Positions 10,101 to 62,785 of a stretch of DNA of 64,000 nucleotides are shown here, one piece after another. The translations under genes and the position numbers were made by a program. Every line of letters starts with the position of its first letter. Position 1 is the stretch's first letter. The stretch lies in IMG/VR virus record IMGVR_UViG_3300019927_000058, positions 1 through 64,000 of that record, one strand, 5' to 3'. This DNA is from a virus. The notes under the pieces were generated by a model that saw only the letters and a list, made by a program, of their open reading frames with translations, did not search any database and was not told the DNA's origin.

Positions 10101-11210
10101 CAAGTCTCCTTGAACATCAACAGTATTCTTAAATTCATCACGGATACTCTGCAACTGACTCTTCTTTTCTTCACGTTCCATTCGAGCATTTTCTTCTGCA
10201 ACTCTCGCCTTATTAACTTGGAACTGGTAGTCATTAATAATAGACTCAAGTTCCTTTACAGAATCAGCATTTGCAACGGTTTCGGTAGTTAACTGAGGAA
10301 GTTGATTAAGTCTCTCTTCTTCAATGGCTTCTATTTTGAGCCGAGCTTCCTGAATAGCTAACGAAGCTTCTTCTTGTGTACTTCTTGCCGCTTCCTGCTT
10401 TTCGGTTAATTCTTGAACAGCACTAGAAGCATTACGATACTCATCAGCTAACTGTCGAACCTGTTGCTCTGACTCACCCATCGATTCGGCAAATAGATCC
10501 TGCTCTAAAGCAATGCCACGCAGTTGCTCTTGCATAGTCTCCGAAGGACGCATCATCGCACGGAAAATATTACGAAGACCAGTAGCGGCTACTCTGGCCC
10601 CGAATCCAGTCCGTGTAAGAACACCCATCGCAGCACCGATTTCATCAATCTGAATGCTTAAGTTTGAACCAAGAGCAGCAACACGCCCAAGAACCGGAGC
10701 AAGATCTTCCATCCGGGTTTTACCAAACTGAACAGTCTGGAAAAGCGACTCAGACACATCCTGTGCCTGATCAGCCTCTAACCCATACGTGTTCATCACA
10801 GTCGAAAGCACATCGACAGACGTACCCAACTCTACCCGACCAACAACAGCAAGCTTTGAAGCAGTAGTCAGAAACTCTCTCTGAGCCTCTGTACTCTTTC
10901 CAATACCAGCCGAAACAGACTGATACAGACCCTCAATAACCTCAAGCCTATCAGCCTGAAGGCCCATTTCCGTGTTCAAATCGGAAGTTAATTCACCATA
11001 TCTCTCCTGAGCATTAGACGCTCCCTGAACCAACGTATCAACTTCACGAAAAGCAGCATTGACACGTTCTGCCCTTTGAGATAACGTGAATAAAGCAGCA
11101 CCAGTAAGTGCTGAAGCACCAGTCATCGCAACACCAAGATTTCGGACAGTTGAACTTAATCCTCTAACTACTTCAGTAAGGCCACTGGTAATATCGCCCG
11201 CGCTGGCCAT
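7113..11210 (-). CDS. Tail tape measure protein
   Basis: 1365 aa. The N-terminal ~230 aa resemble the TP901-family tape-measure core as I remember it (LYQSVSAGIG, VMNTYG, LFQTVQFGKTRMEDLAPVLGRVA). A long coiled coil follows, then Gly/Ala/Ile/Val-rich hydrophobic repeats. Confidence 0.85.
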   Translation of the reverse strand: MASAGDITSGLTEVVRGLSSTVRNLGVAMTGASALTGAALFTLSQRAERVNAAFREVDTLVQGASNAQERYGELTSDLNTEMGLQADRLEVIEGLYQSVSAGIGKSTEAQREFLTTASKLAVVGRVELGTSVDVLSTVMNTYGLEADQAQDVSESLFQTVQFGKTRMEDLAPVLGRVAALGSNLSIQIDEIGAAMGVLTRTGFGARVAATGLRNIFRAMMRPSETMQEQLRGIALEQDLFAESMGESEQQVRQLADEYRNASSAVQELTEKQEAARSTQEEASLAIQEARLKIEAIEEERLNQLPQLTTETVANADSVKELESIINDYQFQVNKARVAEENARMEREEKKSQLQSIRDEFKNTVDVQGDLEGGIGNLVLQNQDFVDTLVQLRERTQEQNIAFNELFPRTRALQGALALVGDDGEALTNIFEQMEEGTFDAAESWSKLDESAKENFDSFEEFQNVTEEVTSGDLNSWFKQAQGPQQQLRNSISELQESLASLGRVFTEDLVDTISTFAENVNNLTERFANMEESVRENISEFTILAVTLGLVLGPLLLLGGQIALIAQAMGSMFIPFALLAGSAIGILGGALSNAASGGQEAQTMFQEMRSFLVSLVDVANHLRNVFVEEVLPGMIVAGEGVVAVFAAVFNEVDQSVGGSGNLIRQFGSVIGNIFRAIGNILKNNAQAIGDFAGVVASTFVNVIIPAIQRFASIAVNDVFPQLVATFRSDVIPAVTALWDSFETAILPFIVNTLTNQIIPAVVSLSNTLFNQVIPSISAFIQGNSDAIVKGGTFAAVLIGLSKALGAVVSFVGPIVAKIIAFGSRVVAAGRKVVGLTRFVRSANTALLGMQRASFAARLGLSALGGPIAVIINLFATLAALWIADVGGMRSALAPLVDGITHFGNQMADEVAPAIVSLVTNIVKLGEEITALVTTFLGAGDGIVALEVAMGALRIIIEGLGDAILGIVQAANAVILGLRSLVAFLSGDFQKSARLGKKAIQLMVQGIINIVIGLGQALVGLFGGIIATIVGLVLDLINGIINAFITLAKKVNSNISDLLDDIVSAFANLPQRAAKALVNLGSVIVDAIPTSLEDLENLGDSLAKLGSAMGDAIIAGFNLAKKLGPKLIDALQYLIEDTIDSTTDVASKLAELGSNFAEAISNGVSNIFDGLSGLLDISPSDALDWGRTLIEKIAEGIGKAGKIIKDAIRNAAGKLGKFLPKSPADEGPLSKPNHPEARGKALATDVAKGIEGSESKFEDAVRSLTDTELENISGDVGFDLASMKSKIQEQNIGKGMNTNANQKLSQSSSEDKDKKIEVSEKAIYFEEGAFQGISDEELPMKVREVFDESMRDIVQEIDGAGKQRTN

Positions 11211-11391: not shown

Positions 11392-12519
11392 TTATCGTAA
11401 TATTTCTTTAAGTCTATTAATAATTTCATTTCTTTCCTCCCAAGACACATATTCATCGCAAGGAATTTTGCTTCCTAAAACAAGATATGTATAATCCGGG
11501 TATTCATCCATGAAAATTTCCGCTTTATCTACACTACCGTCCGAAACATATCCCTTAACTTCAATCACCACCTCAGATTCAACAATGAAATCGGGCATAT
11601 ACTTCCTATCTCCAATATCAAATCTTTTCGGTTCATAGCAGTAATTCAAATCAGAATTATGAAGTAATAAATCTATTTCCTTTTCCCAACTAGAACGGAC
11701 TGTTCTTTCAGTTTCTTCTACAAACACAGGTTTAGAAATAAGACTTCCATTTATGATGTTATCACTTTCGTATAAATAATCATTATCTCGTTTATTAATA
11801 ACATTTTCCATCATCCATTCTCTATCGCGCTGAGAATGTTGAGTTTCTCCTTTTTCATAATTTTCTTTCATCGTCTGAGATATTTTCTCTCGTCTTTCTT
11901 TGCTTTTATTGGGGTTATCCTCTCCCTCCATATCAGACCCAAAGCAATCGTCATTACAATACTTCGGATACTTTGGATCACCTTTGCTTTTTGGAGTCCA
12001 GTTTTCTTCACCACAATAATCGCAATTATAGTATGTCCCTGCTATTGACTCATCATGCTTATCGTGATGATGCTTACTGACAGATTGTTTTGTGGCAAAA
12101 CTCTTATCACAGGAAGGACATGGATATTTGTTTCCAATTTCATATTCCAATACCCATTTGGAAACAGTTTTCATCCCAACATCCAGTTCATCAGCGATTT
12201 CTGTCACTGTTTTTCCTTGTTCTTCTACTTGCTCTCGCAGGTAGTCTTCATCAAAGTGTTTGAAAGTTCCAGTTTTATTATAAATCTCGCACCACTTAGA
12301 ACAGAATGTGTTTCTTTTCCCATTCCCGAAATCCAACCTCCCACATTCTTCGCATCTATATAGATATGCAAGACTTCCTTCATGATTGTAACCATAATGC
12401 ATTGAAACACCCCGAGATGAATCAAAATCATCATCTCCGCATTCAGGACATTCAATGAAGTTCAATTCATCATCGACACATTCTTCAAGTCGTGCTTGAC
12501 TGAGTGTTTTCTTCCCCAT
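11392..12519 (-). CDS. Free-standing homing-endonuclease-like protein: C2H2 and CxxC..FCSxxC zinc fingers, an HTH, and a C-terminal PD-(D/E)XK nuclease
   Basis: 375 aa. Motifs: CPECG..HYGYNH, CEECG...FCSKWCEIY, an HTH (GKTVTEIADELDVGMKTVSKWV), CPSCDKSF..HHHDKH, and a C-terminal YMPDFIVESEVVIEVKG. The C-terminal ~90 aa align with ORF 49463-50416. Confidence 0.6.
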   Translation of the reverse strand: MGKKTLSQARLEECVDDELNFIECPECGDDDFDSSRGVSMHYGYNHEGSLAYLYRCEECGRLDFGNGKRNTFCSKWCEIYNKTGTFKHFDEDYLREQVEEQGKTVTEIADELDVGMKTVSKWVLEYEIGNKYPCPSCDKSFATKQSVSKHHHDKHDESIAGTYYNCDYCGEENWTPKSKGDPKYPKYCNDDCFGSDMEGEDNPNKSKERREKISQTMKENYEKGETQHSQRDREWMMENVINKRDNDYLYESDNIINGSLISKPVFVEETERTVRSSWEKEIDLLLHNSDLNYCYEPKRFDIGDRKYMPDFIVESEVVIEVKGYVSDGSVDKAEIFMDEYPDYTYLVLGSKIPCDEYVSWEERNEIINRLKEILR

Positions 12520-43476: not shown

Positions 43477-43551
43477 GGACACGTAGTTTAGTCTGGATAA
43501 AACCTCTGGCTTCTAACCAGAAGATCAAGTGTTCAAATCACTTCGTGTCCG
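43477..43551 (+). tRNA. tRNA-Arg (anticodon UCU)
   Basis: Manual cloverleaf. Acceptor GGACACG/CGTGTCC. D stem GTTT/AAAC. Anticodon arm TCTGG-CTTCTAA-CCAGA. 5-nt variable loop. T arm AAGTG-TTCAAAT-CACTT. Confidence 0.9.
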
Positions 43552-43554
43552 TTC

Positions 43555-43629
43555 GGGTCCGTAGCTAAGTCTGGTAAAGCGACCTGCTCATAACGGGTTG
43601 ATTCCGGCGTTCAAATCGCCGTGGACCCA
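43555..43629 (+). tRNA. tRNA-Met (or Ile2) with anticodon CAU
   Basis: Manual cloverleaf. Acceptor GGGTCCG/TGGACCC (one G.U pair). Anticodon arm ACCTG-CTCATAA-CGGGT. T arm CGGCG-TTCAAAT-CGCCG. The variable loop is 6 nt, slightly atypical. Confidence 0.8.
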
Positions 43630-43670: not shown

Positions 43671-44651
43671 ATGAAAGCGACTGATATTCCTTGGACAGAA
43701 AAGTACCGCCCAGATACTCTTGATGGTGTTGTCGGAAATCAAGATTCAGTTGACCGGATGAAGAAGTATGTCAATGATGGTGGAATGACAAATCTTCTTC
43801 TTTATGGTCCGGCAGGTACGGGGAAGACGACTGCTGCGATTGCACTTGCTAAGGAAATCTATGGCGATGATTGGGAAGCTAACTTCATCGAAAAGAATGC
43901 TTCTGATGATCGAGGAATCGATGTAGTGCGTGACGAAATTAAGTCAGTTGCACAACAATCTACTGCTGGTGAATATCCATTCAAAATCATCTTCCTTGAT
44001 GAGAGTGACAACCTTACGAAAGATGCTCAGTCAGCACTACGTCGAACGATGGAGACTTATTCTGACCAGACACGGTTCATTCTCAATGCGAATTATCACA
44101 ATAAACTGATTGATCCGATTCAATCTCGTTGCTCACTATTCCCATTCAAACGCCTTGAAGATAGTGAAATTCGACAGATTCTTACGAAGATTGCACGGGG
44201 CGAAGGCTTTGAGTGGGAAGTTGAAGCGTTTGATGAGATTATCGATTACGTGAAGGGAGACGCACGGAGAGCAGTTCACACGCTTCAGATGAGCGTTCAG
44301 GATGGAGAAGTGACTGCTGGTAATCTTGAGTTTGTTAACCTGCAAGCTTCACAAGAAGATATTCAGGAGATGCTTGAGTTGGCTTTGAATGGAGAAATTG
44401 AAGAAGCTATGGATATGAATATCCGAGATGTTCAGCCACAGGTCACGGATCATTCCCAGTTCTGTAAAGATGTAATGACTGCTCTGAAGAAAACTGATGA
44501 GATTAATAAAGATGTTCGTTGGTATATGATGGGGCAAGTCGGTGATATGGAACGGAATATTCTGGAAGGAGCAAGTCCTACTGTTCAGACTAATTCTTTC
44601 ATTGCAAAGCTTCCTGTCGCCCAGTACTCTTCAATTCCAAATTATGAGTGA
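43671..44651 (+). CDS. rfcS: Replication factor C small subunit (clamp loader)
   Basis: 326 aa. Motifs: PWTEKYRPDTLDGVVGNQD, LLLYGPAGTGKTTAAIALAKE, IIFLDESDNLT, DAQSALRRTME, SRC. Confidence 0.9.
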   Translation: MKATDIPWTEKYRPDTLDGVVGNQDSVDRMKKYVNDGGMTNLLLYGPAGTGKTTAAIALAKEIYGDDWEANFIEKNASDDRGIDVVRDEIKSVAQQSTAGEYPFKIIFLDESDNLTKDAQSALRRTMETYSDQTRFILNANYHNKLIDPIQSRCSLFPFKRLEDSEIRQILTKIARGEGFEWEVEAFDEIIDYVKGDARRAVHTLQMSVQDGEVTAGNLEFVNLQASQEDIQEMLELALNGEIEEAMDMNIRDVQPQVTDHSQFCKDVMTALKKTDEINKDVRWYMMGQVGDMERNILEGASPTVQTNSFIAKLPVAQYSSIPNYE

Positions 44652-44802
44652 ACTGAATAATCCAATGCGTTTCAGTATGCGGAATAGGACTATTGACATA
44701 GATAATTATCTCCATCATTCAGATTTTCCTGAAAAGAAAGTTACTGATATAAGTATAGTACCGTCTGAAGGAAATATCTATGTTCATTGGGAGGAAGAAT
44801 GA
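44644..44802 (+). CDS. Small hypothetical protein (52 aa)
   Basis: I chose the internal ATG at 44644, which forms an ATGAGTGA junction with the rfcS stop. An ATGA overlap joins it to the HNH gene. Confidence 0.35.
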   Translation: MSELNNPMRFSMRNRTIDIDNYLHHSDFPEKKVTDISIVPSEGNIYVHWEEE

Positions 44803-45677
44803 CAAGTAAGAGAATTACAGAAGAAGAACTTATTCAAGAGCTTCACCGACTGCATGAGAAAATTAATGGCCGTAGTCCGAGGATGAAAGATATGACTGAT
44901 AACGGAAAGTATTCGTTTTATACTTATCGTGATAGATTCGGAAATTGGAATGATGCATTGGAAGAAGCTGGTATAAAAACTAACCGGCAACTGCACGTTC
45001 CAAAAAGCGATGCAATAAAAGATATAAAGAAAGTATCTGAAGAATATTGCAATGGCGAGAGTCCGACTACTGTTGATATGGAAGAGCATGGTAAATATTC
45101 TGAGGCGGTATATTGTCGTAAATTCGATTGGAGAAAGATTTTAAATGAAGCTGGTTTTAGATCGGGATATGAAATAAGCCGAGAAAAATTGAAGTTAGAA
45201 TTGAAAAAACTAGCAAAGCAACTCGACAAAACTCCCTCTTCTAGAGATATGAAGTATGAAGGCAAGTATACTCCTTCGCCTTACCGTAGAGAGTTTGGAA
45301 GTTGGAATAATGCTTTAAAAGATTGTGGTTATGAACCTATCGGTTATGTTTCTGGAAAAGAACATCCAAATTGGAAAGAAGATAGCTTGTCCGATGAAGA
45401 AAGTAGAAAGCTTGATAGATGGTCAAAAAGAGTAAAAAGGAGAGATGAATATGAATGCCAAGATTGTGAATCTCCACGTTCGGATGTGAGAGTTGCCCAT
45501 CACATAAAAAGAAGAAAAAATCGCCCCGATTTAATGTTTGATGAAGATAATGGGATAACATTGTGTCCAGATTGCCATGCTGAAAGGCATGAAGGAGATA
45601 CTGTTTATAATTCTCTCAAAACAATAGCTGAAAAACTATCAAAATCAAGCTATGAGGAGGTTTATCATGGAAATTGA
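44799..45677 (+). CDS. HNH homing endonuclease with three N-terminal homing-endonuclease-associated repeats
   Basis: ATG at 44799. There are three ~55-aa repeats (GRSPRMKDMTDNGKYSFYTYRDRFGNWNDALEEAG; GESPTTVDMEEHGKYSEAVYCRKFDWRKILNEAG; DKTPSSRDMKYEGKYTPSPYRREFGSWNNALKDCG). The HNH core is CQDC...VAHHIKRR...DNGITLCPDCHAERH. Confidence 0.8.
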   Translation: MTSKRITEEELIQELHRLHEKINGRSPRMKDMTDNGKYSFYTYRDRFGNWNDALEEAGIKTNRQLHVPKSDAIKDIKKVSEEYCNGESPTTVDMEEHGKYSEAVYCRKFDWRKILNEAGFRSGYEISREKLKLELKKLAKQLDKTPSSRDMKYEGKYTPSPYRREFGSWNNALKDCGYEPIGYVSGKEHPNWKEDSLSDEESRKLDRWSKRVKRRDEYECQDCESPRSDVRVAHHIKRRKNRPDLMFDEDNGITLCPDCHAERHEGDTVYNSLKTIAEKLSKSSYEEVYHGN

Positions 45678-46473
45678 AGAACTAAGTGCATCTGGCGTTA
45701 AAAAATATATTTCATGCGAAAAGCAATATTATCTACATTATTTATCTAATGTTCCAGAACCAGTTGAGTTTGAAGAACCCCGTCATTTTGCCACTGGGAA
45801 TTGTGTTCACGATACTTTAGAAGAAGTTCTACAGAATTATGATATATCTCCCGTAGAAAAAGACTTTTATAATATTTTGGTCAATGAGAGCAGTAATTTT
45901 GAAAAAGATAATCAAGATAATGATAAAGTAGATAATTGTCTCCAGACTGCTTCTCGATGGATAACTTCCTTCGTTAAAGAAATAAAACACGTTGAAGAAA
46001 AGTGGTCTATGAATCGTGATGGTATCAAGTACAAGGGCCTTGCTGATCTGATTGCTGATGTTGAGCAAGATGGAGAACTATATGAAAATACTGTTGTAGA
46101 CTGGAAGACAGGTTCGGTGAATGAAGAGTGGAAAGAGCGAATTCAGGGTGGAATGTATGCGGAAATGCATAAAGAAATTTATGGTGAATATCCTGAAGCT
46201 ATTGTATTCGTTTATTTAGATGAAGAAACACAGTCTTTTCATCCACGCATTACAGATGGGGAAGTATTCTGGAATGCGAAAGAAAATAAGTATTGGACTG
46301 AAATCGAAGAATGGAAAGGCAAAATTCTCCAGTCAGAAGCTTTAGGTGAATGGGAAGCGAAACCTGAGCAGTCACAATGTTTCTTCTGTGATTATAAGCA
46401 TTATTGTCGTGATAGTCCAATAGGTGCAGAAAATGTTGGGACCAATGAAATTCAGATGGGTGATTTTCTATGA
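45667..46473 (+). CDS. Cas4/RecB-like PD-(D/E)XK exonuclease with Fe-S cysteines
   Basis: ATG at 45667, preceded by GGAGGT. Motifs: N-terminal Cys (YISCEKQYY), GLADLIADVE...VVDWKTG (D..D/ExK), QGGMYAEM (QxxxY), and C-terminal CFFCDYKHYC. Confidence 0.7.
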   Translation: MEIEELSASGVKKYISCEKQYYLHYLSNVPEPVEFEEPRHFATGNCVHDTLEEVLQNYDISPVEKDFYNILVNESSNFEKDNQDNDKVDNCLQTASRWITSFVKEIKHVEEKWSMNRDGIKYKGLADLIADVEQDGELYENTVVDWKTGSVNEEWKERIQGGMYAEMHKEIYGEYPEAIVFVYLDEETQSFHPRITDGEVFWNAKENKYWTEIEEWKGKILQSEALGEWEAKPEQSQCFFCDYKHYCRDSPIGAENVGTNEIQMGDFL

Positions 46474-46935: not shown

Positions 46936-47139
46936 ATGGAAGGTCAACCTCAAGAACCACGCCCCCCCGAAACGAAGGAAGTTAATGTGAATGTTGCCGG
47001 TACTTTTGTCGGACTTATTTTATTCATTGCACTTGTTTGGTCAATGTATACTGGTGAGATGAGTTTTGCATATCTCAATGCAGGACTCCTTGCCACGCTT
47101 GCTATTGCCAATCATGTTGTTAACATGATGTATAAATAG
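46936..47139 (+). CDS. Small membrane protein (2 TM)
   Basis: 67 aa with helices GTFVGLILFIALVWSMY and LNAGLLATLAIANHVV. Confidence 0.5.
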   Translation: MEGQPQEPRPPETKEVNVNVAGTFVGLILFIALVWSMYTGEMSFAYLNAGLLATLAIANHVVNMMYK

Positions 47140-47142
47140 AAT

Positions 47143-47397
47143 ATGAGTGATGCACCAAAGGACAATTGGCGTCCAGCAGAGAAGAAACCTATCCAAGTTG
47201 AATTCCGTGGACCTTATTACACACCCGATGAAGTTGAAACTATCGAAGGTGATTTTGAAGTAGATAGAGAATATCTTAATGAACACGGCGGTTATGTCAT
47301 AATCAAGGGAATCGAAGGTGAAAAGTATCCGTGTGCTTTGGATATATTCAGAGAGTCATATGGAATGCCGGAGGAATCAAAATGCTTGGAAGAGTGA
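47143..47397 (+). CDS. Small conserved phage-type beta protein (PGDYG-like?)
   Basis: 84 aa. The pattern KKPIQVEFRGPY..VETIEGDFEV..GGYVIIKGIEGEKYPCALDIFRESY matches my memory of the PGDYG family. Confidence 0.35.
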   Translation: MSDAPKDNWRPAEKKPIQVEFRGPYYTPDEVETIEGDFEVDREYLNEHGGYVIIKGIEGEKYPCALDIFRESYGMPEESKCLEE

Positions 47398-49466
47398 CAT
47401 GGTGTGACTACTGTATCGATGATTATTTCGGTGTACTTGTTCGGTTATCAGCAAGGTTAGAAGATGGCAGTCGTTGGAATGGTTATGTTGCAGGGACAGA
47501 ACCCTACATCTTTGCACCTGAAGATGAACCAGTTCCAGATAAATACTACATCGAGAGAACAGAGTCCGGTTATGAATCTCTCTTCGATCATAAGCTTCAG
47601 AAGATAGTCACACGCACGCCTAAACAGGCTGGTGGACTCACCGACGAGTTTTCTTGGTCCGGTGAAGGTGATGTTCCATATTATCGAAGAGTAGCTATTC
47701 ACGATGGTCTGAGTGGCTATGTAGATATTCCTGAAGAGTATAATGAAAAACGCAAGGATCTACCAGTAGTTCATATTGATGATATTGATGTAGAACCAGA
47801 TTATAACGATACTATTGAGCCACGAATCTCCATTGCTGACATTGAGGTTCATGTTCCTGAAAATGGCACATTTGAGGAAATGCAGAAGAAAGCAAATGAA
47901 CCAATCAATGTTATCTGTTCATATGATACATATGAAGAGAAGTACACTGTCTTCTATTATGATAAGTACGGTGGATTGGATTCGGGGAGTATTCGTGATA
48001 AAATAGAGGAACAGCTTGCGGGTGCAGGAAAACAATGGCAGAATATGAGGAAACATATTGAGAAGGATATTGAATTAGTGATTTCTGATTCCGAGGCTGC
48101 TATGTTGAATGAGTATGAGCAGTATATTAGTGAAAGAGACTTTGATCTTGTTTCAGGTTGGAATTATGTAGATTTCGACCGAGAATATATTCGTAAACGG
48201 ATGAAAGTTCTTTATGAAGATGATGAAAATATCCATCCGTCATGGCTATCTCCTTTCGATGTGATTTCAGATTCTCGGAATGAAAATAGAAGAATTCCGG
48301 GTAGAGCGCCATTTGATATGCTGGAAGGGTTTTGCGATAAATTGACTTTCAGCAATTGGCGTTCTCGATCATTAGAATATGTAGCCAATGAAGAGCTTGG
48401 CATCGGGAAGATAGAGGATGTTCAAATTAATGATGATTGGGAGAATAATGCTTCCCGATTGATTGCGTATAATATCGTTGACGTTATTCTCACTGTGGCG
48501 CTTGATGATGAAAACGATATTCATAACTTTTTCTATGAAATGGCTGACGTTGCCTCTATTCCGATTTATGATGTTTTCTATGAGAAGAGAATCGTTGATG
48601 GAATTGTTCTCAGTTGGCGGAATGAAGATGAAATTCTTCCAACAGCAGATGAAAGTGAACTGGTAGATAATGCAGGCGGTTATGTAGCTAATGCAATTCA
48701 GGGGAGGAAACAAGATGTGGGTGTTTCTGATCTTAAAAGTCTCTATCCTTCTGTAATAATTACGTGGAATCTTTCCACTGAAACAGTTGCGGAAACTCCA
48801 GAAGACTTCGATGAGTATGTAAAAATTCCTAAAGTTCCTGAGCCAAAGAATGTGGATGGAAAAATTCATGAACATTTTATGGATTGGGACTGGTTGTATG
48901 CTTCCCTTGATCAAGAAGGTCTTATCCCAAGAGTCAGTAAGAAACTGTTCAAAAAACGGAATTATGAGAAAGAGCAGATGTATGCTGCTCCAGATGGCTC
49001 TCAAGAACAGAAAAAGTGGGATAGGAAGCAAGGAGCTACAAAGGTTATCATGAATTCGATCTACGGCAACCTCTCTTCCAAATATTTTCGTCTTTCTAAT
49101 GAGTACCTTGGCGATGCTGTTACTTCAACTGCAAGATATACACTTTGGAAAGGAGAGCAAACTATCGACCGTCTTGGATATGAACACATCTACTCAGACA
49201 CAGACAGTCACTTTATTCAATTAACAAGAGACACTTTGGAAGGGCAGGTTGAAGAGTTGAAAGAAATCTCTGCCAAAATGGATTCGGATGCTTCGGAAAT
49301 CGCTCAAGAAATTGGAATTGAGGGTAAGCATCCCTATCTTGTTGATGAAGATTTGCATGGTGATGAATATACTTGCTTATTATGGGAACCAGAAGCCATT
49401 TTCAATTCTTTTCTTCAATTGGGTAAAAAGAAAAGATACGCTGGAAACTTGGGGTGGGAATTATGA
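47382..49466 (+). CDS. polB: Family B DNA polymerase, N-terminal fragment (exonuclease, palm and fingers through the KKRY motif)
   Basis: ATG at 47382 with GGAGGA upstream. Motifs: Exo I ISIADIEV, Exo II SGWNYVDFDREY, Exo III YNIVDVILT, motif A VSDLKSLYPSVI, motif B KVIMNSIYGNLS, motif C IYSDTDSHF, then LGKKKRYAGNLGWEL followed by a stop. Confidence 0.9.
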   Translation: MLGRVTWCDYCIDDYFGVLVRLSARLEDGSRWNGYVAGTEPYIFAPEDEPVPDKYYIERTESGYESLFDHKLQKIVTRTPKQAGGLTDEFSWSGEGDVPYYRRVAIHDGLSGYVDIPEEYNEKRKDLPVVHIDDIDVEPDYNDTIEPRISIADIEVHVPENGTFEEMQKKANEPINVICSYDTYEEKYTVFYYDKYGGLDSGSIRDKIEEQLAGAGKQWQNMRKHIEKDIELVISDSEAAMLNEYEQYISERDFDLVSGWNYVDFDREYIRKRMKVLYEDDENIHPSWLSPFDVISDSRNENRRIPGRAPFDMLEGFCDKLTFSNWRSRSLEYVANEELGIGKIEDVQINDDWENNASRLIAYNIVDVILTVALDDENDIHNFFYEMADVASIPIYDVFYEKRIVDGIVLSWRNEDEILPTADESELVDNAGGYVANAIQGRKQDVGVSDLKSLYPSVIITWNLSTETVAETPEDFDEYVKIPKVPEPKNVDGKIHEHFMDWDWLYASLDQEGLIPRVSKKLFKKRNYEKEQMYAAPDGSQEQKKWDRKQGATKVIMNSIYGNLSSKYFRLSNEYLGDAVTSTARYTLWKGEQTIDRLGYEHIYSDTDSHFIQLTRDTLEGQVEELKEISAKMDSDASEIAQEIGIEGKHPYLVDEDLHGDEYTCLLWEPEAIFNSFLQLGKKKRYAGNLGWEL

Positions 49467-50416
49467 AATACTATTGTGAAAATTGTGATTATTCAACAGA
49501 TACAGAAAGAGGTTTAAATATTCATGTTGGCAGAAAACATGGCAAACCAGTAGAAAAATGCGAAGAATGCAAAGAACAATTTGAAACATCCCCATCAAAC
49601 AATAGAAAGTTTTGCTCCGATGAATGCTACCGTACTTATCAAGAAAGAACAAAAGAAAATAAAGAAGCAAAATGCGAAGTTTGCGGTAAATATTTTGAAT
49701 ATCATCCATCTGCATATGTTGGACGTTTTTGCTCAAAAAAGTGTCAATATAAAGGCAATTCTGCTCCATCTGGACAAGAACACTGGAATTATAAAAAAGA
49801 GATAACAAAACAGTGTAAGAATTGCGATGGGGAGTTTAATGTCAAGCCTCATAAGTCTCATCAAGAATTCTGTAGCTCAGAGTGTGTCGGTAGGTATGGT
49901 GAGTGGGAGAAACCGGGGAGAAGTAAGGTTGACAGAATCAAGAAAGACTGCCATGTATGCGGAGAAGAAGTTATTCGTTTACCTTCAAATATTACTTCTG
50001 ATGAGGAACGTGTGTTTTGTTCTGAACGGTGTCGTGGTAAGTGGGTTTCAAAAAGTGATATATTCAACGCATCATCTGTTTATGTAAAGGAAACAAATAG
50101 AACTGTAGCATCTGGTTGGGAGGCGAAAGTAGACCGAATTCTACATGAAAGTATTTTTGAATACGAATATGAATCAAAAACATTCACCATTGGCGATGAA
50201 AGAAATTATACACCGGATTTCATAGTTGAAGATGATATTGTCATAGAAGTCAAAGGACAAGCATCTGATTATTCATATGAACGTTCTTCTCTATTTTTAC
50301 AAGAGTATGGTGAAGATTGGTTATATATCGTTGTTGGTACTGAAATGGATAGTCACATTCATATATCTTGGAGTAATCATTCAAAGTTACCGGAGGTGTT
50401 GAAGAATGCCATATAA
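49463..50416 (+). mobile_element. Homing-endonuclease-like gene inserted in polB: one C2H2 finger, four CxxC..FCSxxC (FCS/TRASH-like) zinc fingers and a PD-(D/E)XK nuclease
   Basis: ATG at 49463 overlaps the polB-N stop (ATGA). The 3' end overlaps the polB-C start by 11 nt. Motifs: YYCENCDYSTDTERGLNIHVGRKH; CEECKE..FCSDECYRTY; CEVCGK..FCSKKCQYKG; CKNCDG..FCSSECVGRYG; CHVCGE..FCSERCRGKW; C-terminal YTPDFIVEDDIVIEVKG. It is a paralogue of 11392-12519. Confidence 0.7.
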
Positions 50417-50990
50417 AAAAGAAGGGTTTGTGGGAAAGTTTTACGATGAACCTAAAATAAAAATTAAGGGTTTTGAAAACCAACGCTCGGATAGTCCACC
50501 TGTCACTGCCGAACTTCAAGAAAAGATTATTGAGATGATTCTTACGAATGAAGATTTTGTAACTGTTTCTAAATATATAGAGTCTGTCATCGAAGAAATT
50601 GATATTGAAAGTGATAATGTCGAAAGGTTTGCACTACCGGGGTCGTTAAATAGAGATTTGGAAGATTATACAAATACACAAATAACAAGAGGAGCAAGAT
50701 ATTCTAATGAACATCTCGATAAAGAGTTTGGCGAAGGCGATGATCCATTCGTTTACATGGTCGATGATACTCCAGCAGGATTACCACAGACTGATGTAGT
50801 GGCTCTTGAATGGGATGATGATATTCCTGAAGGGTTTGAGTTGAATAAAGAAGCAATCATTGAGAGAGGCATTAAGAAACCAATTGATTCCATTATCAAT
50901 GAAATGGATTGGGAATTTAATGAAATTCGCTCTGGGAAGAGACAAAAGAAAAAAGACCTAAGTACAGGCGGCTCCAATCCTTTTGCATGA
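50406..50990 (+). CDS. polB: Family B DNA polymerase, C-terminal fragment (thumb)
   Basis: 194 aa. GKFYDEPKIKIKGFENQRSDSPP aligns with the segment that follows KKRYA in T4/RB69-type PolB (recalled as ..EPKLKIMGLETQKSSTP). Confidence 0.75.
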   Translation: MPYKKEGFVGKFYDEPKIKIKGFENQRSDSPPVTAELQEKIIEMILTNEDFVTVSKYIESVIEEIDIESDNVERFALPGSLNRDLEDYTNTQITRGARYSNEHLDKEFGEGDDPFVYMVDDTPAGLPQTDVVALEWDDDIPEGFELNKEAIIERGIKKPIDSIINEMDWEFNEIRSGKRQKKKDLSTGGSNPFA

Positions 50991-51325
50991 GATTCCTTGG
51001 TAAAATTCTCGATTTGATTTGGTTAGGTTCAGATAATAGTCAGATTTCTGAAACTTCATCAGAAGATCCAAGAAAAAAGAAGAAAGATGATAATGATGTT
51101 TCTATCGCTCATTTTGAAGATAAGGGTGGAATTTATTTAGTAGCTTTTGATTGGGATATTACAAGGGTTGAAGAATTTGTGAATAATGGCTTCTTCGATA
51201 CATGGGAAAGAGAAATGGAAAATACAGGCGTGTTTTTAATGTCTGGAAACATGGGTAAAGACGGAGATGTTGAAGTAGTCAAAACATCTGTTTCAGAAGT
51301 ATTCAAAACTGAAGAAGATGAGTGA
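50987..51325 (+). CDS. Hypothetical protein
   Basis: 112 aa with an ATGA overlap upstream and an ATGAGTGA junction downstream. Confidence 0.5.
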   Translation: MRFLGKILDLIWLGSDNSQISETSSEDPRKKKKDDNDVSIAHFEDKGGIYLVAFDWDITRVEEFVNNGFFDTWEREMENTGVFLMSGNMGKDGDVEVVKTSVSEVFKTEEDE

Positions 51326-51554
51326 AGAAATCATCGGTCATGTCATTGATAAGAAAGATGAAAATACTTTGACTCTCAAGAATCTTCAAAATGAAGTTTT
51401 TGAAATAGAAATTCCAGATATATTTCACTATTCGGTTGGAGATGCTGTTCCTGAAGGTCACGATTATAGTAGAAAATGCAAACAGTGTAGAAATGAGCAG
51501 ATGTATGATTCTAAGAATGATGAATGGTATTGTCCTTTAGGCCATGACAATTGA
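51318..51554 (+). CDS. Small zinc-ribbon protein (family with 51544-51834 and 54717-54944)
   Basis: 78 aa with the C-terminal motif CKQCRNEQMYDSKNDEWYCPLGH. Confidence 0.55.
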   Translation: MSEEIIGHVIDKKDENTLTLKNLQNEVFEIEIPDIFHYSVGDAVPEGHDYSRKCKQCRNEQMYDSKNDEWYCPLGHDN

Positions 51555-58540: not shown

Positions 58541-58568
58541 CCGTGTGTCTCTAACACACGGATGCATT

Positions 58569-60629
58569 ATGGCAGAGAAAGTCAGCGCACTGACGAATTT
58601 GGATACAATCAACGAGAAGCACCAAGATGAAATTCCAGAAGGTCTTCGTGATTCCCATTCGTTTGAATGGTATCTTGAAGAGCTTTCTGCAAGTCCACGA
58701 ATCGCCCGAAATGCACATCAGCGACTTTCGGATATGTTCCGTCACTACGGAACTGAATACGATGAAGAACGCGGTGTTGTCGAATACAAGCTAGCCAGCG
58801 AAGATCCGCTCAATGATGGAGATAATATCTTCTACGGGCGCGATGTTCACGAATCTATCCACGAATTTGTGAACAAAGTTCATTCTGCTTCCCGTGGTTT
58901 GGGGCCAGAAAAACGAATCAAACTTCTCCTTGGTCCGGTTGGTTCTGGTAAGTCTGATTTCGACCGGCAGGTTCGGACTTACTTTGAAGATTATACACGG
59001 CAAGAAGCAGGTCGAATGTATACCTTCCAGTGGACCAATCTCTGCGAAGTTATTGAAGACCAAGATCCTTCGGATGATACGGTGCGTTCGGCTATGAATC
59101 AAGACCCTGTAGTTCTTCTTCCAGAGAGTCAGAGAGAAGAAATCTTTGAAGCTCTCAATGAAGAAATTGATGCAGATTACTACATCGAAAACAAGCAGTC
59201 CCTTGACCCACGGAGTGAATTTTTCATGGATAAACTGCTTGACTACTACGATGATGATCTTCAGGCAGTCCTGAATAATCACATTGAAGTCGTCCGTTTC
59301 GTTGCAAGTGAGAACCGGCGGGAAGGAGTTGAAACCTTTGAGCCAAAGGACAAGAAGAATCAGGATGAAACCGAACTTACTGGAGATGTTAACTATTCCA
59401 AAATTGCAGTTTACGGTGAATCTGATCCGCGTGCGTTTGACTATTCTGGTGCTTTCTGTAATGCCAACCGTGGAATTTTCAGTGGAGAAGAGCTTCTAAA
59501 ACTCCAGAAAGAATTCCTCTATGACTTCCTCCACGCTACTCAAGAACAGACGATCAAGCCGAAAAATAATCCACGTATTGATATTGACCAAGTAATTGTT
59601 GGTCGAACCAATATGCCGGAGTACCGGGAGAAGACTGGTAACGAAAAGATGGAAGCGTTCAACGACCGAACCAAACGTATCGACTTCCCATACGTTTTGG
59701 AGTATTCAGAAGAGGCTAAGATTTACGAGAAGATGCTGAACAACTCTTCTGTTGGTGAAGTTCATGTTGAACCTCATACGCTTGAGATGGCAGGACTGTT
59801 CGGAGTTATGACCCGACTTGAAGAGCCGGGTGCAGAAAATATCACTCTGCTTCAGAAAGCAAAAGCGTACAACGGTGAAGAGAGTGATGTTGGTGATATT
59901 GACATTGAAAAACTCCGTGAAGAGACTGATGAAGAAGGACTGCACGGTGTCTCTGCTCGATTCATCGGAGATGAAATTGCAGAATCTATTGTCTCTCAAC
60001 TGCATGATGATTCCAATTCGCTTTCGGCGCTAACCGTATTCAACCATCTCGAAAATAACATCGAGAATCACGGTTCGATTGCTGATGAAAACCTGACTGA
60101 ATACAATCGGTATATCGAAGAGACAAAGGAAGAGTTTGAAGAGCGAGCTATTGAAGATGTTCGCCATGCCCTCGCATACAATACTGATGAAATCGAAGAG
60201 CAGGGCGAGAAGTACATGGATCACGTCATGGCTTACATCGATGATGATAAAGTCGAAGACGAAATCACGGGTGATATGGTTGATCCTGATGAACAGTTCA
60301 TGCGTTCTGTTGAAGAACAATTAGAAATCCCCCGTGACCGTAAGAACGACTTCCGGCAAGAAATCTCTAATTGGGTCAGTCGGAAAGCGCGGAAAGGTGA
60401 ATCATTTAGCCCGACCGATAATGACCGACTTCTCCGTGCGCTTGAACGCAAGCTATGGTCGGATAAGAAGCATAATATTAACTTTTCCGCTCTCATTAAA
60501 TCGGATGATGATGACGAAAACCGCGACGATTGGATTTCTGCTCTCAAAGACCGTGGTTATTCGGAAGAAGGAGCAGAAGAAGTTCTTGAATACGCAGGAG
60601 CGAAAGTTGCCAAAGAAGAAATGAATTAA
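58569..60629 (+). CDS. prkA: PrkA-family serine protein kinase / AAA+ protein (copy 1)
   Basis: I chose the ATG at 58569. ~686 aa. The N-terminal region FEWYLEELSASPRIARNAHQRL is PrkA-like. The P-loop is IKLLLGPVGSGKSDF. Length and layout match YeaG/PrkA. Confidence 0.75.
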   Translation: MAEKVSALTNLDTINEKHQDEIPEGLRDSHSFEWYLEELSASPRIARNAHQRLSDMFRHYGTEYDEERGVVEYKLASEDPLNDGDNIFYGRDVHESIHEFVNKVHSASRGLGPEKRIKLLLGPVGSGKSDFDRQVRTYFEDYTRQEAGRMYTFQWTNLCEVIEDQDPSDDTVRSAMNQDPVVLLPESQREEIFEALNEEIDADYYIENKQSLDPRSEFFMDKLLDYYDDDLQAVLNNHIEVVRFVASENRREGVETFEPKDKKNQDETELTGDVNYSKIAVYGESDPRAFDYSGAFCNANRGIFSGEELLKLQKEFLYDFLHATQEQTIKPKNNPRIDIDQVIVGRTNMPEYREKTGNEKMEAFNDRTKRIDFPYVLEYSEEAKIYEKMLNNSSVGEVHVEPHTLEMAGLFGVMTRLEEPGAENITLLQKAKAYNGEESDVGDIDIEKLREETDEEGLHGVSARFIGDEIAESIVSQLHDDSNSLSALTVFNHLENNIENHGSIADENLTEYNRYIEETKEEFEERAIEDVRHALAYNTDEIEEQGEKYMDHVMAYIDDDKVEDEITGDMVDPDEQFMRSVEEQLEIPRDRKNDFRQEISNWVSRKARKGESFSPTDNDRLLRALERKLWSDKKHNINFSALIKSDDDDENRDDWISALKDRGYSEEGAEEVLEYAGAKVAKEEMN

Positions 60630-60637
60630 GATAACCC

Positions 60638-62785
60638 ATGTCAAAAAATTTTATCGAGAAAGCGTCTGAAGAAGCCTCGTTACAGGCAGATGATACCATG
60701 TCATTGAAGTCGTTCCTTGAGTACGCTGAGGAAAATACAACGAGCGTGGTTGATTCAGTCACGTATCTGCTAAGGGCGATTGAACATTTCGGTACTCGTA
60801 CCATCTTTGAAGATGGAGAAGAAAAGGAGAGGTACGTGTTCTTTGATGATCCGTATGAAGATGGGGAACACGCTATTCTTGGAAACACAGAGCAGTTGAA
60901 CGAGCTTGTTGATGAATTACGTCGCCGTGCATCCGAGGAAGGGGAGAATAATAAAATCATTTGGTTCCTTGGACCTACGGCTTCTGGTAAGTCGGAATTG
61001 AAGAGATGTATTATCAACGGACTCCGTGGCTTTGCAGAAAGCGATGAAGGTGCAAAGTATACACTTGAATGGACTTTAGATGAGTCTTCAGCAAGTAGTC
61101 GAATGTCCTATGGTTCTGAAGATAATTCTATCTCTAAAGAATACTATAAAAGCCCTGTTAATATCAATCCACTTCTTCTTCTTCCCGAAGAAACAAGAGA
61201 AGAATACATTGAAGAAATTGGAGAAAATATTGAATTAGACGGTGATATTGATCCCTTTAGTCAAGAAGCTATGGAACTACTTGAAGATAATTACGACTTT
61301 TCAGAAATTGTTTCTGAAGAGTTTGTTCAGGCCAAGCGTCTATATCCCGAAGTTGGCGATGGCATTGGCGTTCTCCATAGCGAAGATTCTGGAAATCCGA
61401 AACAGAAGATTGTTGGTTCTTGGATGAATGGTGCTATGGAGAAGTTCGCTAAACGTGGTCAGAAGAATCCACAGGCGTTTTCATATGATGGAGTGCTATC
61501 ACAGGGCAATAGTCTGGTGAGCATCGTGGAAGACGCTGGACACCATTCAGAAGTTCTTGATAAGATGCTCAATGTGTGTGAAGAAGAGATGGTTAAGCTG
61601 GATAATAAGATTTCGATGGATTTGGATACTGTTATCATGGTATTCTCCAATCCAGACTTGGAAGGTCAACTTGAAGAATATAGTGAAGCTGGTCAACATG
61701 ACCCTCTTCGTGCGTTGCGTCGGAGGTTGGATAAGTATGAATTTAATTATTTAACCACCATTGGAATTGAGGGTATGCTGATTAAACGTATGCTTTCGGA
61801 CGATACTCTCATGTGGGATGATGAAGATAATAGAATGGACTTGGTAGCCGAACCAATGGAACTATATCAGACTGAAATCGCTCCAAGATGTATTGAAGCA
61901 GCATCGATGTATGAGATTATTACTCGTCTTGAAGATAAGAAGACCAGTCTCTCTTCTATCAATGAGGCTCTACTTCTAGAACACGGTGAAGTCGAAAGTG
62001 AAAATGGCAATTTGATTACTACTGACGATAGTGAAATGGATTTAAATTTGGGAGGAAGTGTTGGAATTCCTGTCACATACACTGTTGACAAAATAATTGA
62101 ACTTGTTCAGAATAATGATGTAGTTCTGCCTGAAGATGTTCTCAATCAAATGTCTGATAATCTTGAAGATGAACCTGTCTTCAATAATTCTGAAGTAGAA
62201 CACTTTGCAAAGATGGCATTTGATGTTGAAGATTATATTTACAAAGAACAAAGAGATGATGTTCTTGAGGCAATGATTGGAGATATTGAAGTTACCGAAG
62301 AGAATGTTCGTGAATATATTGATGATATTCTTGCTTGGAATGATGAAGATGAAGATGAATATGACCTTTATGAACTACGGGAGTTTGAAACTCGATATTT
62401 AGGACAGGATATTGATGATTATAATGAGAATGCTGTAGCGAATCCTCCTATTGTGGAATTCCGTCGAAACATCATTAGTCCTATCAACAAGTATATGTGG
62501 GAAAAGAGAGATGAAGATTTCACTGTTGATGAAGTTCCGCTTTCAGAGGCTCCGTCTCTCCGACCATTACTTGAAGAAAATGATTGGGATATGGTAGACC
62601 GAGTATATCCAGATGCCGACTTATCGCTCTGGGAGTCGCCGCCTTCAAACACACAGACAGAAGAGTTAAAAGAAAAGACCGTTAAAAGGATGGTAGAGAT
62701 GCAAGGATACTCTGAAGAATCAGCAGAAGAAGTTAGTAAGAAGGTGATTGAACCTCATGTTAAAGCAGAAGAGGTGATGGGATAA
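60638..62785 (+). CDS. prkA: PrkA-family protein (copy 2, divergent)
   Basis: 715 aa. Motifs are SLKSFLEYAEENTTSVVDSVTYLLRAIEHFG and the P-loop IIWFLGPTASGKSELKR. It lies 8 nt downstream of copy 1. Confidence 0.65.
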   Translation: MSKNFIEKASEEASLQADDTMSLKSFLEYAEENTTSVVDSVTYLLRAIEHFGTRTIFEDGEEKERYVFFDDPYEDGEHAILGNTEQLNELVDELRRRASEEGENNKIIWFLGPTASGKSELKRCIINGLRGFAESDEGAKYTLEWTLDESSASSRMSYGSEDNSISKEYYKSPVNINPLLLLPEETREEYIEEIGENIELDGDIDPFSQEAMELLEDNYDFSEIVSEEFVQAKRLYPEVGDGIGVLHSEDSGNPKQKIVGSWMNGAMEKFAKRGQKNPQAFSYDGVLSQGNSLVSIVEDAGHHSEVLDKMLNVCEEEMVKLDNKISMDLDTVIMVFSNPDLEGQLEEYSEAGQHDPLRALRRRLDKYEFNYLTTIGIEGMLIKRMLSDDTLMWDDEDNRMDLVAEPMELYQTEIAPRCIEAASMYEIITRLEDKKTSLSSINEALLLEHGEVESENGNLITTDDSEMDLNLGGSVGIPVTYTVDKIIELVQNNDVVLPEDVLNQMSDNLEDEPVFNNSEVEHFAKMAFDVEDYIYKEQRDDVLEAMIGDIEVTEENVREYIDDILAWNDEDEDEYDLYELREFETRYLGQDIDDYNENAVANPPIVEFRRNIISPINKYMWEKRDEDFTVDEVPLSEAPSLRPLLEENDWDMVDRVYPDADLSLWESPPSNTQTEELKEKTVKRMVEMQGYSEESAEEVSKKVIEPHVKAEEVMG

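Follow-up and report, generated by a model that had tools for sequence, protein, structure and literature searches.

The window analysed here is a stretch of 64,000 nucleotides (positions 1 to 64,000 of IMG/VR virus record IMGVR_UViG_3300019927_000058) from a low-GC (about 38%) tailed archaeal virus of a salt lake. The gene for its family B DNA polymerase (polB) is present in two pieces. Two open reading frames (ORFs) encode the two parts of the enzyme, and a third ORF, which encodes a putative homing endonuclease, lies between them and overlaps both. All three ORFs stand exactly where a first-pass annotation, made from the letters of the window alone, had placed them. The features of the locus are listed below; here and throughout, a caret marks the insertion point.

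47382..49466, plus strand: N-terminal polB cistron (PolB-N), 694 amino acids (aa), with the N-terminal, 3'-5' exonuclease, palm and fingers domains; from the ORF and its translation, Pfam and alignment with the polymerases (PolB) of HCTV-1 and HVTV-1
49458..50417, plus strand: inserted element of ~960 bp, with boundaries good to ~6 nt; from comparison with the uninterrupted loci L003, L013, L014, L015 and L017 (..TGG^AAR GAR GGN..)
49463..50416, plus strand: free-standing putative homing endonuclease gene, 317 aa, with an ATG start and an alternative GTG at 49454
50392..50398, plus strand: Shine-Dalgarno (SD)-like GGAGGTG, 7 nt before the PolB-C ATG, within the last part of the nuclease ORF (codons P-E-V)
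50406..50990, plus strand: C-terminal polB cistron (PolB-C), 194 aa, with the last palm strand and the thumb; from Pfam and alignment with HCTV-1 PolB and RB69 gp43

The start of PolB-N is placed at the ATG at 47382, which is backed by alignment with HCTV-1 PolB, and an alternative GTG is found upstream at 47331. Its translation contains, in order, Exo I (IADIEV), Exo II (SGWNYVDFD), Exo III (YNIVDV), DLKSLYPS, KVIMNSIYG, YSDTDS and KKRYAG. This series, and a stop six codons past KKRYAG (..GNLGWEL), had been noted at the outset, and the translation agrees with both. The C-terminal end of PolB-N reads ..LGKKKRYAGNLGWEL and is composed of KKKRYAGNLGW, two element-derived codons (EL) and TGA. PolB-C begins with MPYKKEGFVGKFYDEPKIKIKGFENQRSDSPP: its first four residues (MPYK) come from the element, KEG..FYDEPKIKIKGFENQRSDS forms the last palm strand, and the thumb domain comes next. 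In Pfam, PolB-N matches DNA_pol_B_exo1 (PF03104) with an E value of 1e-11 and covers profile positions 22-256 of DNA_pol_B (PF00136; E 1e-23), and PolB-C matches the latter profile at positions 285-380 (E 5e-5). PolB-C is 41% identical to the PolB C-terminus of HCTV-1 and HVTV-1, which are haloarchaeal siphoviruses of the Druskaviridae, and it takes PolB-N and PolB-C jointly to make up a family B DNA polymerase of the B5/halovirus group. The two fragments share one reading frame, as both starts are divisible by 3, and only the nuclease ORF is shifted. The latter is joined to PolB-N by an ATGA overlap (49463-49466) and to PolB-C by an overlap of 11 nt (50406-50416), both as first described.

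Since the two fragments align end to end with intact PolBs, no polymerase residues have been lost at the break. Alignment with intact homologues had been proposed as a check, as had a search of related viruses for an uninterrupted allele; nothing proved to be missing at the junction, and uninterrupted alleles turned up in six loci, which allowed the insertion point to be mapped within W^K/E-E^G. Intact relatives read ..KKRY(A/T)GNIRW^KEGTVY..ISISGFENQRSDS across this point. In L003, an IMG/VR contig with a thumb 72% identical to that of the window, the uninterrupted junction is ..LGNKKRYTGNIRW^KEGTVYNDTKISISGFENQRSDS, that is KKRYTGNIRW^KEGTVYNDTKISISGFENQRSDS, and the presumed type of homing target is GGAAATATCAGATGG^AAGGAGGGAACAGTTTAC. 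Five further uninterrupted junctions come from P0017/L013, P0018, L014, L015 and L017. The window differs from these in having ..NLGW plus EL and a stop at the end of the N fragment and MPYK plus KEGFVGKFYDEPKIKIKGFENQRSDS at the start of the C fragment (MPYK and then KEGFVGKFYDEPKIKIKGFE..).

When split and uninterrupted loci are compared, the insertion always falls within W^K/E-E^G, downstream of KKRYA; divergence of the flanks limits its placement to ~6 nt. The first-pass annotation had set the break at KKRYA itself; it was right that the C fragment is the continuation of PolB, but the break lies 6-8 codons further downstream, between the W and the G of W-K/E-E-G. A duplication at the junction, with KKEGFVG as a degenerate copy of KKKRYAG, was also considered and was rejected, as the intact L003 shows that KEG is the native continuation after W. 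In a sequence alignment with RB69 gp43 (residues 705-759), the split site corresponds to W713/D714, inside KKRYALNVW-DMEG-TRYAEPKLKIMGLE. From the RB69 structures, this position presumably belongs to the last beta-hairpin of the palm, immediately before the thumb.

The same order of N fragment, nuclease and C fragment was found in seven further metagenomic loci, and the nuclease in those measured is 47-89% identical to that of the window.

L004, ERR11028074: split; 16-kb contig with ORFs of 687, 316 and 194 aa
L005, ERR11028074: split
L006, ERR11420203: split
L007/L018, JGI 3300007631: split
L008, ERR15142500: split
L009, ERR7916265: split
L016, metagenome contig Ga0209965_1024596: split

As the layout is seen on independent contigs from at least five other samples, it is not due to chance or to faulty assembly, and the concern raised at the outset that the stop and the frame change might be assembly errors is contradicted. 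Wherever the 5' junction of a split locus is visible, the stop of PolB-N comes no more than three codons from the W. The window, L004 and L008 have the N and C fragments in one frame, L006 and L007 have them in two, and this variation means that there is no frame constraint of the kind that read-through would need. Purifying selection acts on all three ORFs. The ratio of nonsynonymous to synonymous substitution rates (dN/dS), which is usable only for two pairs, with most others saturated at synonymous sites, is 0.14 for both the nuclease and the thumb between the window and L005, and 0.085 for PolB-N and 0.21 for the nuclease between the window and L006.

Split and intact alleles occur side by side in one clade (thumb 62-73% identical), in which eight loci are split and six are intact. 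The window is 91% identical to the nuclease-free L003 across the 90 aa before the junction, and so close a relationship, together with the mixture of split and intact loci, means that the element has been gained or lost on a short evolutionary scale. The polB alleles of the clade, compared for the window, L003, L004 and L006, are also mosaic. Over the first ~570 alignment columns L004 stands apart from the rest, and in columns 570-760 it is L006 that does so; L004 and the window are 38-50% identical over the first ~330 columns and 67-78% identical near the junction and in the thumb, and L006 shows the opposite trend. Such mosaicism indicates intragenic recombination among co-circulating viruses.

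The polB of L003 (IMG/VR UViG_3300017828_000120) carries an insertion of a different type. At about 1700-2940 of that contig, a 412-aa intein lies within motif C (YSD^SITDD...LLHN^TDS), so that in sister viruses distinct selfish elements have entered polB, each at its own conserved site.

How the thumb fragment would be translated can be read from the end of the nuclease gene. In all seven split loci that were checked, a match of 5-8 nt to the Shine-Dalgarno consensus GGAGGTGA stands 4-8 nt before the thumb ATG. The match falls within the last codons of the nuclease ORF and uses the minor glutamate codon GAG (GAA:GAG is ~3:1 in these ORFs). Alignment shows that members of the nuclease family located outside polB do not have the L-E-V C-terminus that encodes the SD sequence. 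At the other end, the ATGA overlap suggests that translation of the nuclease is coupled to that of the N cistron. The earlier proposal that the polymerase is made as two polypeptides is thus supported both by the conserved translation signals and by the purifying selection on both fragments in diverged relatives.

The middle ORF had been taken for a nuclease with zinc fingers and a PD-(D/E)XK domain, and this assignment held, with the further finding that it has the catalytic residues of T7 endonuclease I. The N-terminal two thirds consist of one C2H2 finger and four CxxC..FCSxxC zinc ribbons (Pfam YacG and zf-H2C2_5; alignment). The C-terminal domain is like T7 endonuclease I (Pfam Phage_endo_I), with E220, D252, E262 and K264 as catalytic residues, and the C-terminal ~110 residues were modelled by AlphaFold2 (AF2) with a predicted local distance difference test score (pLDDT) above 90. 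A profile of the family matches T7 endonuclease I (PDB 1m0d) with an E value of 4.6e-8 over ~70 aligned residues, and RSGwE, YTPDF and iEVKG line up with RSGLE, YTPDF and VETKG of the T7 enzyme. Among 109 homologues, E220, D252 and E262 are invariant and K264 is nearly so, and Pfam finds PF05367 in 39 of the 109 (E up to 0.001). A Foldseek search with the full-length model gave matches dominated by the flexible zinc-finger array. The I-Ssp6803I type of homing enzyme was not encountered, either as PF11645 in a Pfam scan of the nuclease (E up to 0.1) or as a chain of I-Ssp6803I (2ost) when the profile was run against PDB (E up to 1).

The nuclease domain belongs to a large family: its profile matches 5,133 cluster representatives with E values up to 1e-3 and 664 under a limit of 1e-10. 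The domain is C-terminal in nearly all of the 150 best-scoring proteins listed, and what precedes it varies. NUMOD3 is found in 47 of the 109 sampled members and helix-turn-helix arrays in ~12 of them, P0009 and P0032 have the PF18780 'homing endonuclease associated repeat', and the zinc array of the window nuclease recurs in halovirus proteins annotated as HNH endonucleases. Two NUMOD3-bearing relatives (P0007 and P0008) adjoin ribonucleotide reductase genes. Such shuffling of modules is typical of free-standing homing endonucleases. A survey of the PD-(D/E)XK superfamily from 2012 gave homing roles only to the Vsr-like and I-Ssp6803I families and not to Phage_endo_I, and no description of homing enzymes resembling endonuclease I was found in the literature searched, the coverage of which was limited.

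A second member of the family is encoded in the window itself, at 11392-12519 on the minus strand. This 375-aa protein (E 3.5e-45 with the hidden Markov model of the nuclease domain) has C2H2-like fingers and a helix-turn-helix. Its gene is free-standing and lies directly upstream, in the sense of transcription, of a 1365-aa tape-measure-like gene (7113-11210). A homologue annotated as 'endonuclease' is present among the early genes (gene 37/38) of HVTV-1 and HCTV-5.

Several other explanations of the locus were weighed, two of which would restore a continuous polymerase. The insert could be an intron, of group I or II, of the archaeal bulge-helix-bulge (BHB) type or of some other type, that is removed from the mRNA to give an unbroken PolB, with the nuclease as its intron-encoded homing enzyme. 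The DNA polymerase genes of phages are a familiar setting for intron-encoded homing endonucleases, as in SPO1 and SP82, and the precision of the insertion, with all polymerase residues kept, would fit. A group I case in a phage polymerase gene is the 43B intron of phage 25 (PMC2988022). Against this, Rfam scans matched no intron of group I or II, whether in the whole window at gathering thresholds or, under more permissive settings, in 49000-51000 (E up to 10) and in four related split loci (E up to 0.1). A custom scan of six loci for the BHB motif across both junctions yielded 0-4 pairings per locus, at or below the 1.6-3.3 expected from shuffles, and at positions that were inconsistent and non-homologous. 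With the nuclease ORF taking up the whole insert and running into both exons, there is no space for a ribozyme core outside the coding sequence, and the conserved SD and in-frame thumb ATG in seven of seven loci would be pointless if the RNA were spliced. An intron is accordingly considered very unlikely, and the first-pass view that there is no conventional self-splicing intron here is borne out by the null Rfam scans and the gap-free layout of the ORFs. That annotation had also argued that the stop codon and the frame change exclude an intein. An intein is indeed ruled out, by the ~nine stop codons that the insert holds in the PolB frame, but the frame change concerns the nuclease ORF only. 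This leaves the idea that a split intein, its two halves separated by a homing endonuclease gene, rejoins the fragments at the protein level. That very order of genes is known from fractured genes (PMC2677866), and the intein of L003 is a conventional one in the polB of a relative. The fragment ends in the window, however, carry just two (EL) and four (MPYK) extra residues, so that intein halves cannot be present, and the Pfam scan revealed no Hint/intein domain; a split intein is ruled out on these grounds and is given hardly any probability.

The remaining alternatives accept the interruption and read it differently. A stop codon that interrupts an essential, conserved gene could mean that the polymerase is broken and non-functional, that the fragments are decaying remnants and that the virus uses another polymerase; the window covers only 64 kb of a ~106-kb contig, the rest of which could hold a second one. 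Both fragments, however, retain every catalytic motif and evolve under constraint (dN/dS of 0.085 for PolB-N and 0.14 for PolB-C), the split persists without additional stops or frameshifts in lineages whose fragments are at 58-73% identity, and no other polymerase was found among the 20 large ORFs of the window that were scanned. A dead gene is therefore highly improbable. It could also be that the middle ORF is a domesticated nuclease of replication or recombination, such as a junction resolvase or an accessory subunit of the polymerase, kept for the benefit of the virus and not selfish. Its nearest relative of known structure, T7 endonuclease I, resolves Holliday junctions; purifying selection acts on the ORF, whose link to polB has stayed stable across diverged viruses; and the isolates HVTV-1 and HCTV-5 bear the nuclease domain in a protein annotated as 'endonuclease'. 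About half of the related viruses, on the other hand, do without the nuclease and have an intact junction. The protein has a long zinc-finger array for reading sequence, its family swaps in DNA-binding modules of homing endonucleases (NUMOD3 and PF18780), a second paralogue is free-standing elsewhere in the window, and relatives adjoin ribonucleotide reductase genes, which are a classic homing target. Domestication is judged unlikely.

The explanation preferred, and held to be quite probable, is that a free-standing homing endonuclease gene created a two-subunit, 'genes-in-pieces' PolB in a Druskaviridae-like haloarchaeal tailed virus. A homing gene should have a conserved site and be present in some genomes and absent from others, and the eight split and six intact loci display both. 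The nuclease for its part has intact catalytic residues and sequence-reading modules, as the genes-in-pieces arrangement calls for. The anatomy of the locus, its conservation, the selection on its genes, the presence/absence polymorphism and the missing intron and intein signatures were all observed directly; the assembly of the subunits, the specificity of cleavage, homing and co-transcription are predicted from them.

In the mechanism proposed, the homing endonuclease gene would have landed in the turn that links the KKRYAGNLGW strand to the FYDEPKIKIKGFE strand. With the element come a stop two codons past the insertion point, its own ORF, and an SD sequence and ATG embedded in its 3' end. 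A single transcript would then give PolB-N (694 aa), the nuclease (317 aa) and PolB-C (194 aa). PolB-N and PolB-C, as separate proteins, would reassemble non-covalently into an active polymerase, with the hairpin probably re-formed as an inter-subunit beta-sheet. The nuclease would read a long target with its five zinc modules and, through its endonuclease-I-like PD-(D/E)XK domain, cut the uninterrupted polB of co-infecting relatives near ..TGG^AAR GAR GGN.. Recombinational repair would copy the element into the cut allele, and the allele that already carries it would be immune because its site is disrupted.

A number of points weigh against this explanation or against parts of it. The virus is uncultivated, the two-polypeptide polymerase is read from sequence, and sequence analysis leaves room for splicing of some other type. 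AF2 modelling of the fused junction region, from an alignment of seven rows, reached a pLDDT of only 33, and the idea of complementation through the hairpin, or through beta-strands, comes from the alignment with RB69 gp43 and the position assumed for it in the RB69 structure. The window nuclease scores below the Pfam gathering cut-off for PF05367 (23.8 vs 29.1 bits), which, alongside the profile match to PDB 1m0d, makes it a homologous but divergent branch, and the characterised relative, T7 endonuclease I, resolves Holliday junctions and is not a site-specific enzyme. The thumb tree is weakly resolved, with bootstraps of 8-33% at the relevant deeper nodes, so that a single ancient gain followed by losses is inseparable from repeated homing. 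Segment and quartet analysis of the polB alleles found no clean co-conversion tract tied to the nuclease gene.

A broader proposal is offered tentatively, with somewhat less than even confidence. It holds that the nuclease represents an unrecognised family of homing endonucleases, in which exchangeable modules for reading DNA (zinc-finger arrays, NUMOD3, helix-turn-helix or HNH-associated repeats) are joined to a C-terminal domain resembling that of T7 endonuclease I, that the family has thousands of members in metagenomes, and that it gave rise, in viruses of halophilic archaea, to a stably inherited replicative PolB of two subunits with a separate thumb protein.

Split replicative genes are known from other viruses, and one close likeness is with gp43 of Aeromonas phages 25 and 44RR (43A/43B; Petrov, Ratnayaka & Karam 2010, summarised in PMC2988022). 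There, as in the window, a tailed virus has its replicative family B polymerase divided over two neighbouring cistrons that flank a free-standing homing endonuclease gene, and the phage 25 products co-purify and are active. These phages are bacterial and T4-like, with a seg-like (GIY-YIG) nuclease, an untranslated intercistronic split and a group I intron as well, whereas the window is archaeal and spacer-free, and no intron was detected in it. In the phage 25 and 44RR case the homing endonuclease gene is uncertain as the cause of the split; the nuclease of the window is like endonuclease I. In phage Aeh1, nrdA is split by mobE and is functional (Friedrich et al. 2007; Crona et al. 2011, PMC3045599; PMC2988022). 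This is again a free-standing homing endonuclease gene in a conserved region of an essential replication-related gene, with two polypeptides as the outcome, which come together again as an active enzyme. The Aeh1 target is nrdA, the nuclease is of the HNH type, the phage is bacterial, and the element-derived tails help assembly; the window has just two and four such residues. T4 gene 39/60 with mobA is likewise a case of 'genes-in-pieces' (PMC2988022).

Among archaeal viruses, a split DNA polymerase has been reported, in the literature searched, only for the group B magroviruses (Philosof et al. 2017, PMC5434244), where it was then described as unique and was not put down to a homing endonuclease gene. 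It too is the PolB of an archaeal tailed virus, related to halovirus PolBs and split in the catalytic domain. What sets the window apart is that it belongs to a Druskaviridae-like halovirus lineage, with an identified causal element and both allelic states available. The split PolB3 of Methanobacteriales and the split-intein PolB of Nanoarchaeum equitans are each encoded by two genes and have been linked to inteins (PMC4104785). The fragments in these cellular cases presumably stem from faulty intein excision or are rejoined by trans-splicing inteins; their two genes can lie apart, with no homing endonuclease gene in between. Fractured genes, with intein halves and a homing endonuclease gene (PMC2677866), contrast with the two and four residues of the window. 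T7 endonuclease I (PF05367; PDB 1m0d, 1fzr and 2pfj) shares its E, PD and ExK residues with the nuclease over ~70 residues and is a small, structure-specific resolvase without DNA-reading modules, whereas in the window the domain is fused to a five-module zinc-finger array and placed within another gene in the manner of a homing endonuclease. What is new, then, is the halovirus-like lineage, the split point, which sets the thumb and one palm strand off as a subunit of their own, the overlapping, spacer-free layout of three ORFs with an embedded SD sequence, and the nuclease family. The split arrangement was not found among cultured viruses in the phage collection, and a megablast search with 47000-51500 gave no cultured phage with near-identical DNA.

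The replication module around polB is broadly syntenic with that of HCTV-1 and HVTV-1, with genes for the RFC small subunit, a RecB-like nuclease, PolB and the RFC large subunit. Between the RFC small subunit (43671-44651) and the RecB-like nuclease (45652-46473) lies a gene on the plus strand at 44787-45677 for an HNH homing endonuclease with three PF18780 repeats (E 1e-52); since L004 has no gene at this place, it is a third mobile nuclease gene, located in the replication module. Two adjacent tRNA genes on the plus strand (43477-43551 and 43555-43629; Rfam, 67.5 and 54.2 bits) stand just upstream of the RFC small-subunit gene, and L004 has a tRNA gene at the equivalent place (1178-1250). 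Further along the window, tandem genes on the plus strand (58545-60629 and 60638-62785) encode PrkA-like serine protein kinases (AAA_PrkA and PrkA; E 1e-66 and 1e-17), a pair that is unusual cargo for a tailed archaeal virus. The G+C content is about 33-44% across 44-54 kb. As the window is low in G+C although its closest cultured relatives infect the high-GC Haloarcula, the host may be a low-GC halophile, for which Haloquadratum or a nanohaloarchaeon would be guesses.

The split point of this polymerase is a natural one that has been tested by evolution in a family B enzyme, and it informs both the assembly of palm and thumb and the engineering of split polymerases. With split and intact alleles both at hand, the sequence of the putative homing site can be stated and put to a direct test. 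A large, modular family of nucleases like endonuclease I, behaving as homing endonucleases do, would if confirmed extend the catalogue of homing endonuclease families and make zinc-finger-guided PD-(D/E)XK nucleases candidate scaffolds for genome engineering. For the archaeal viruses themselves, the locus provides a second case of a split PolB, and one that is explained mechanistically.

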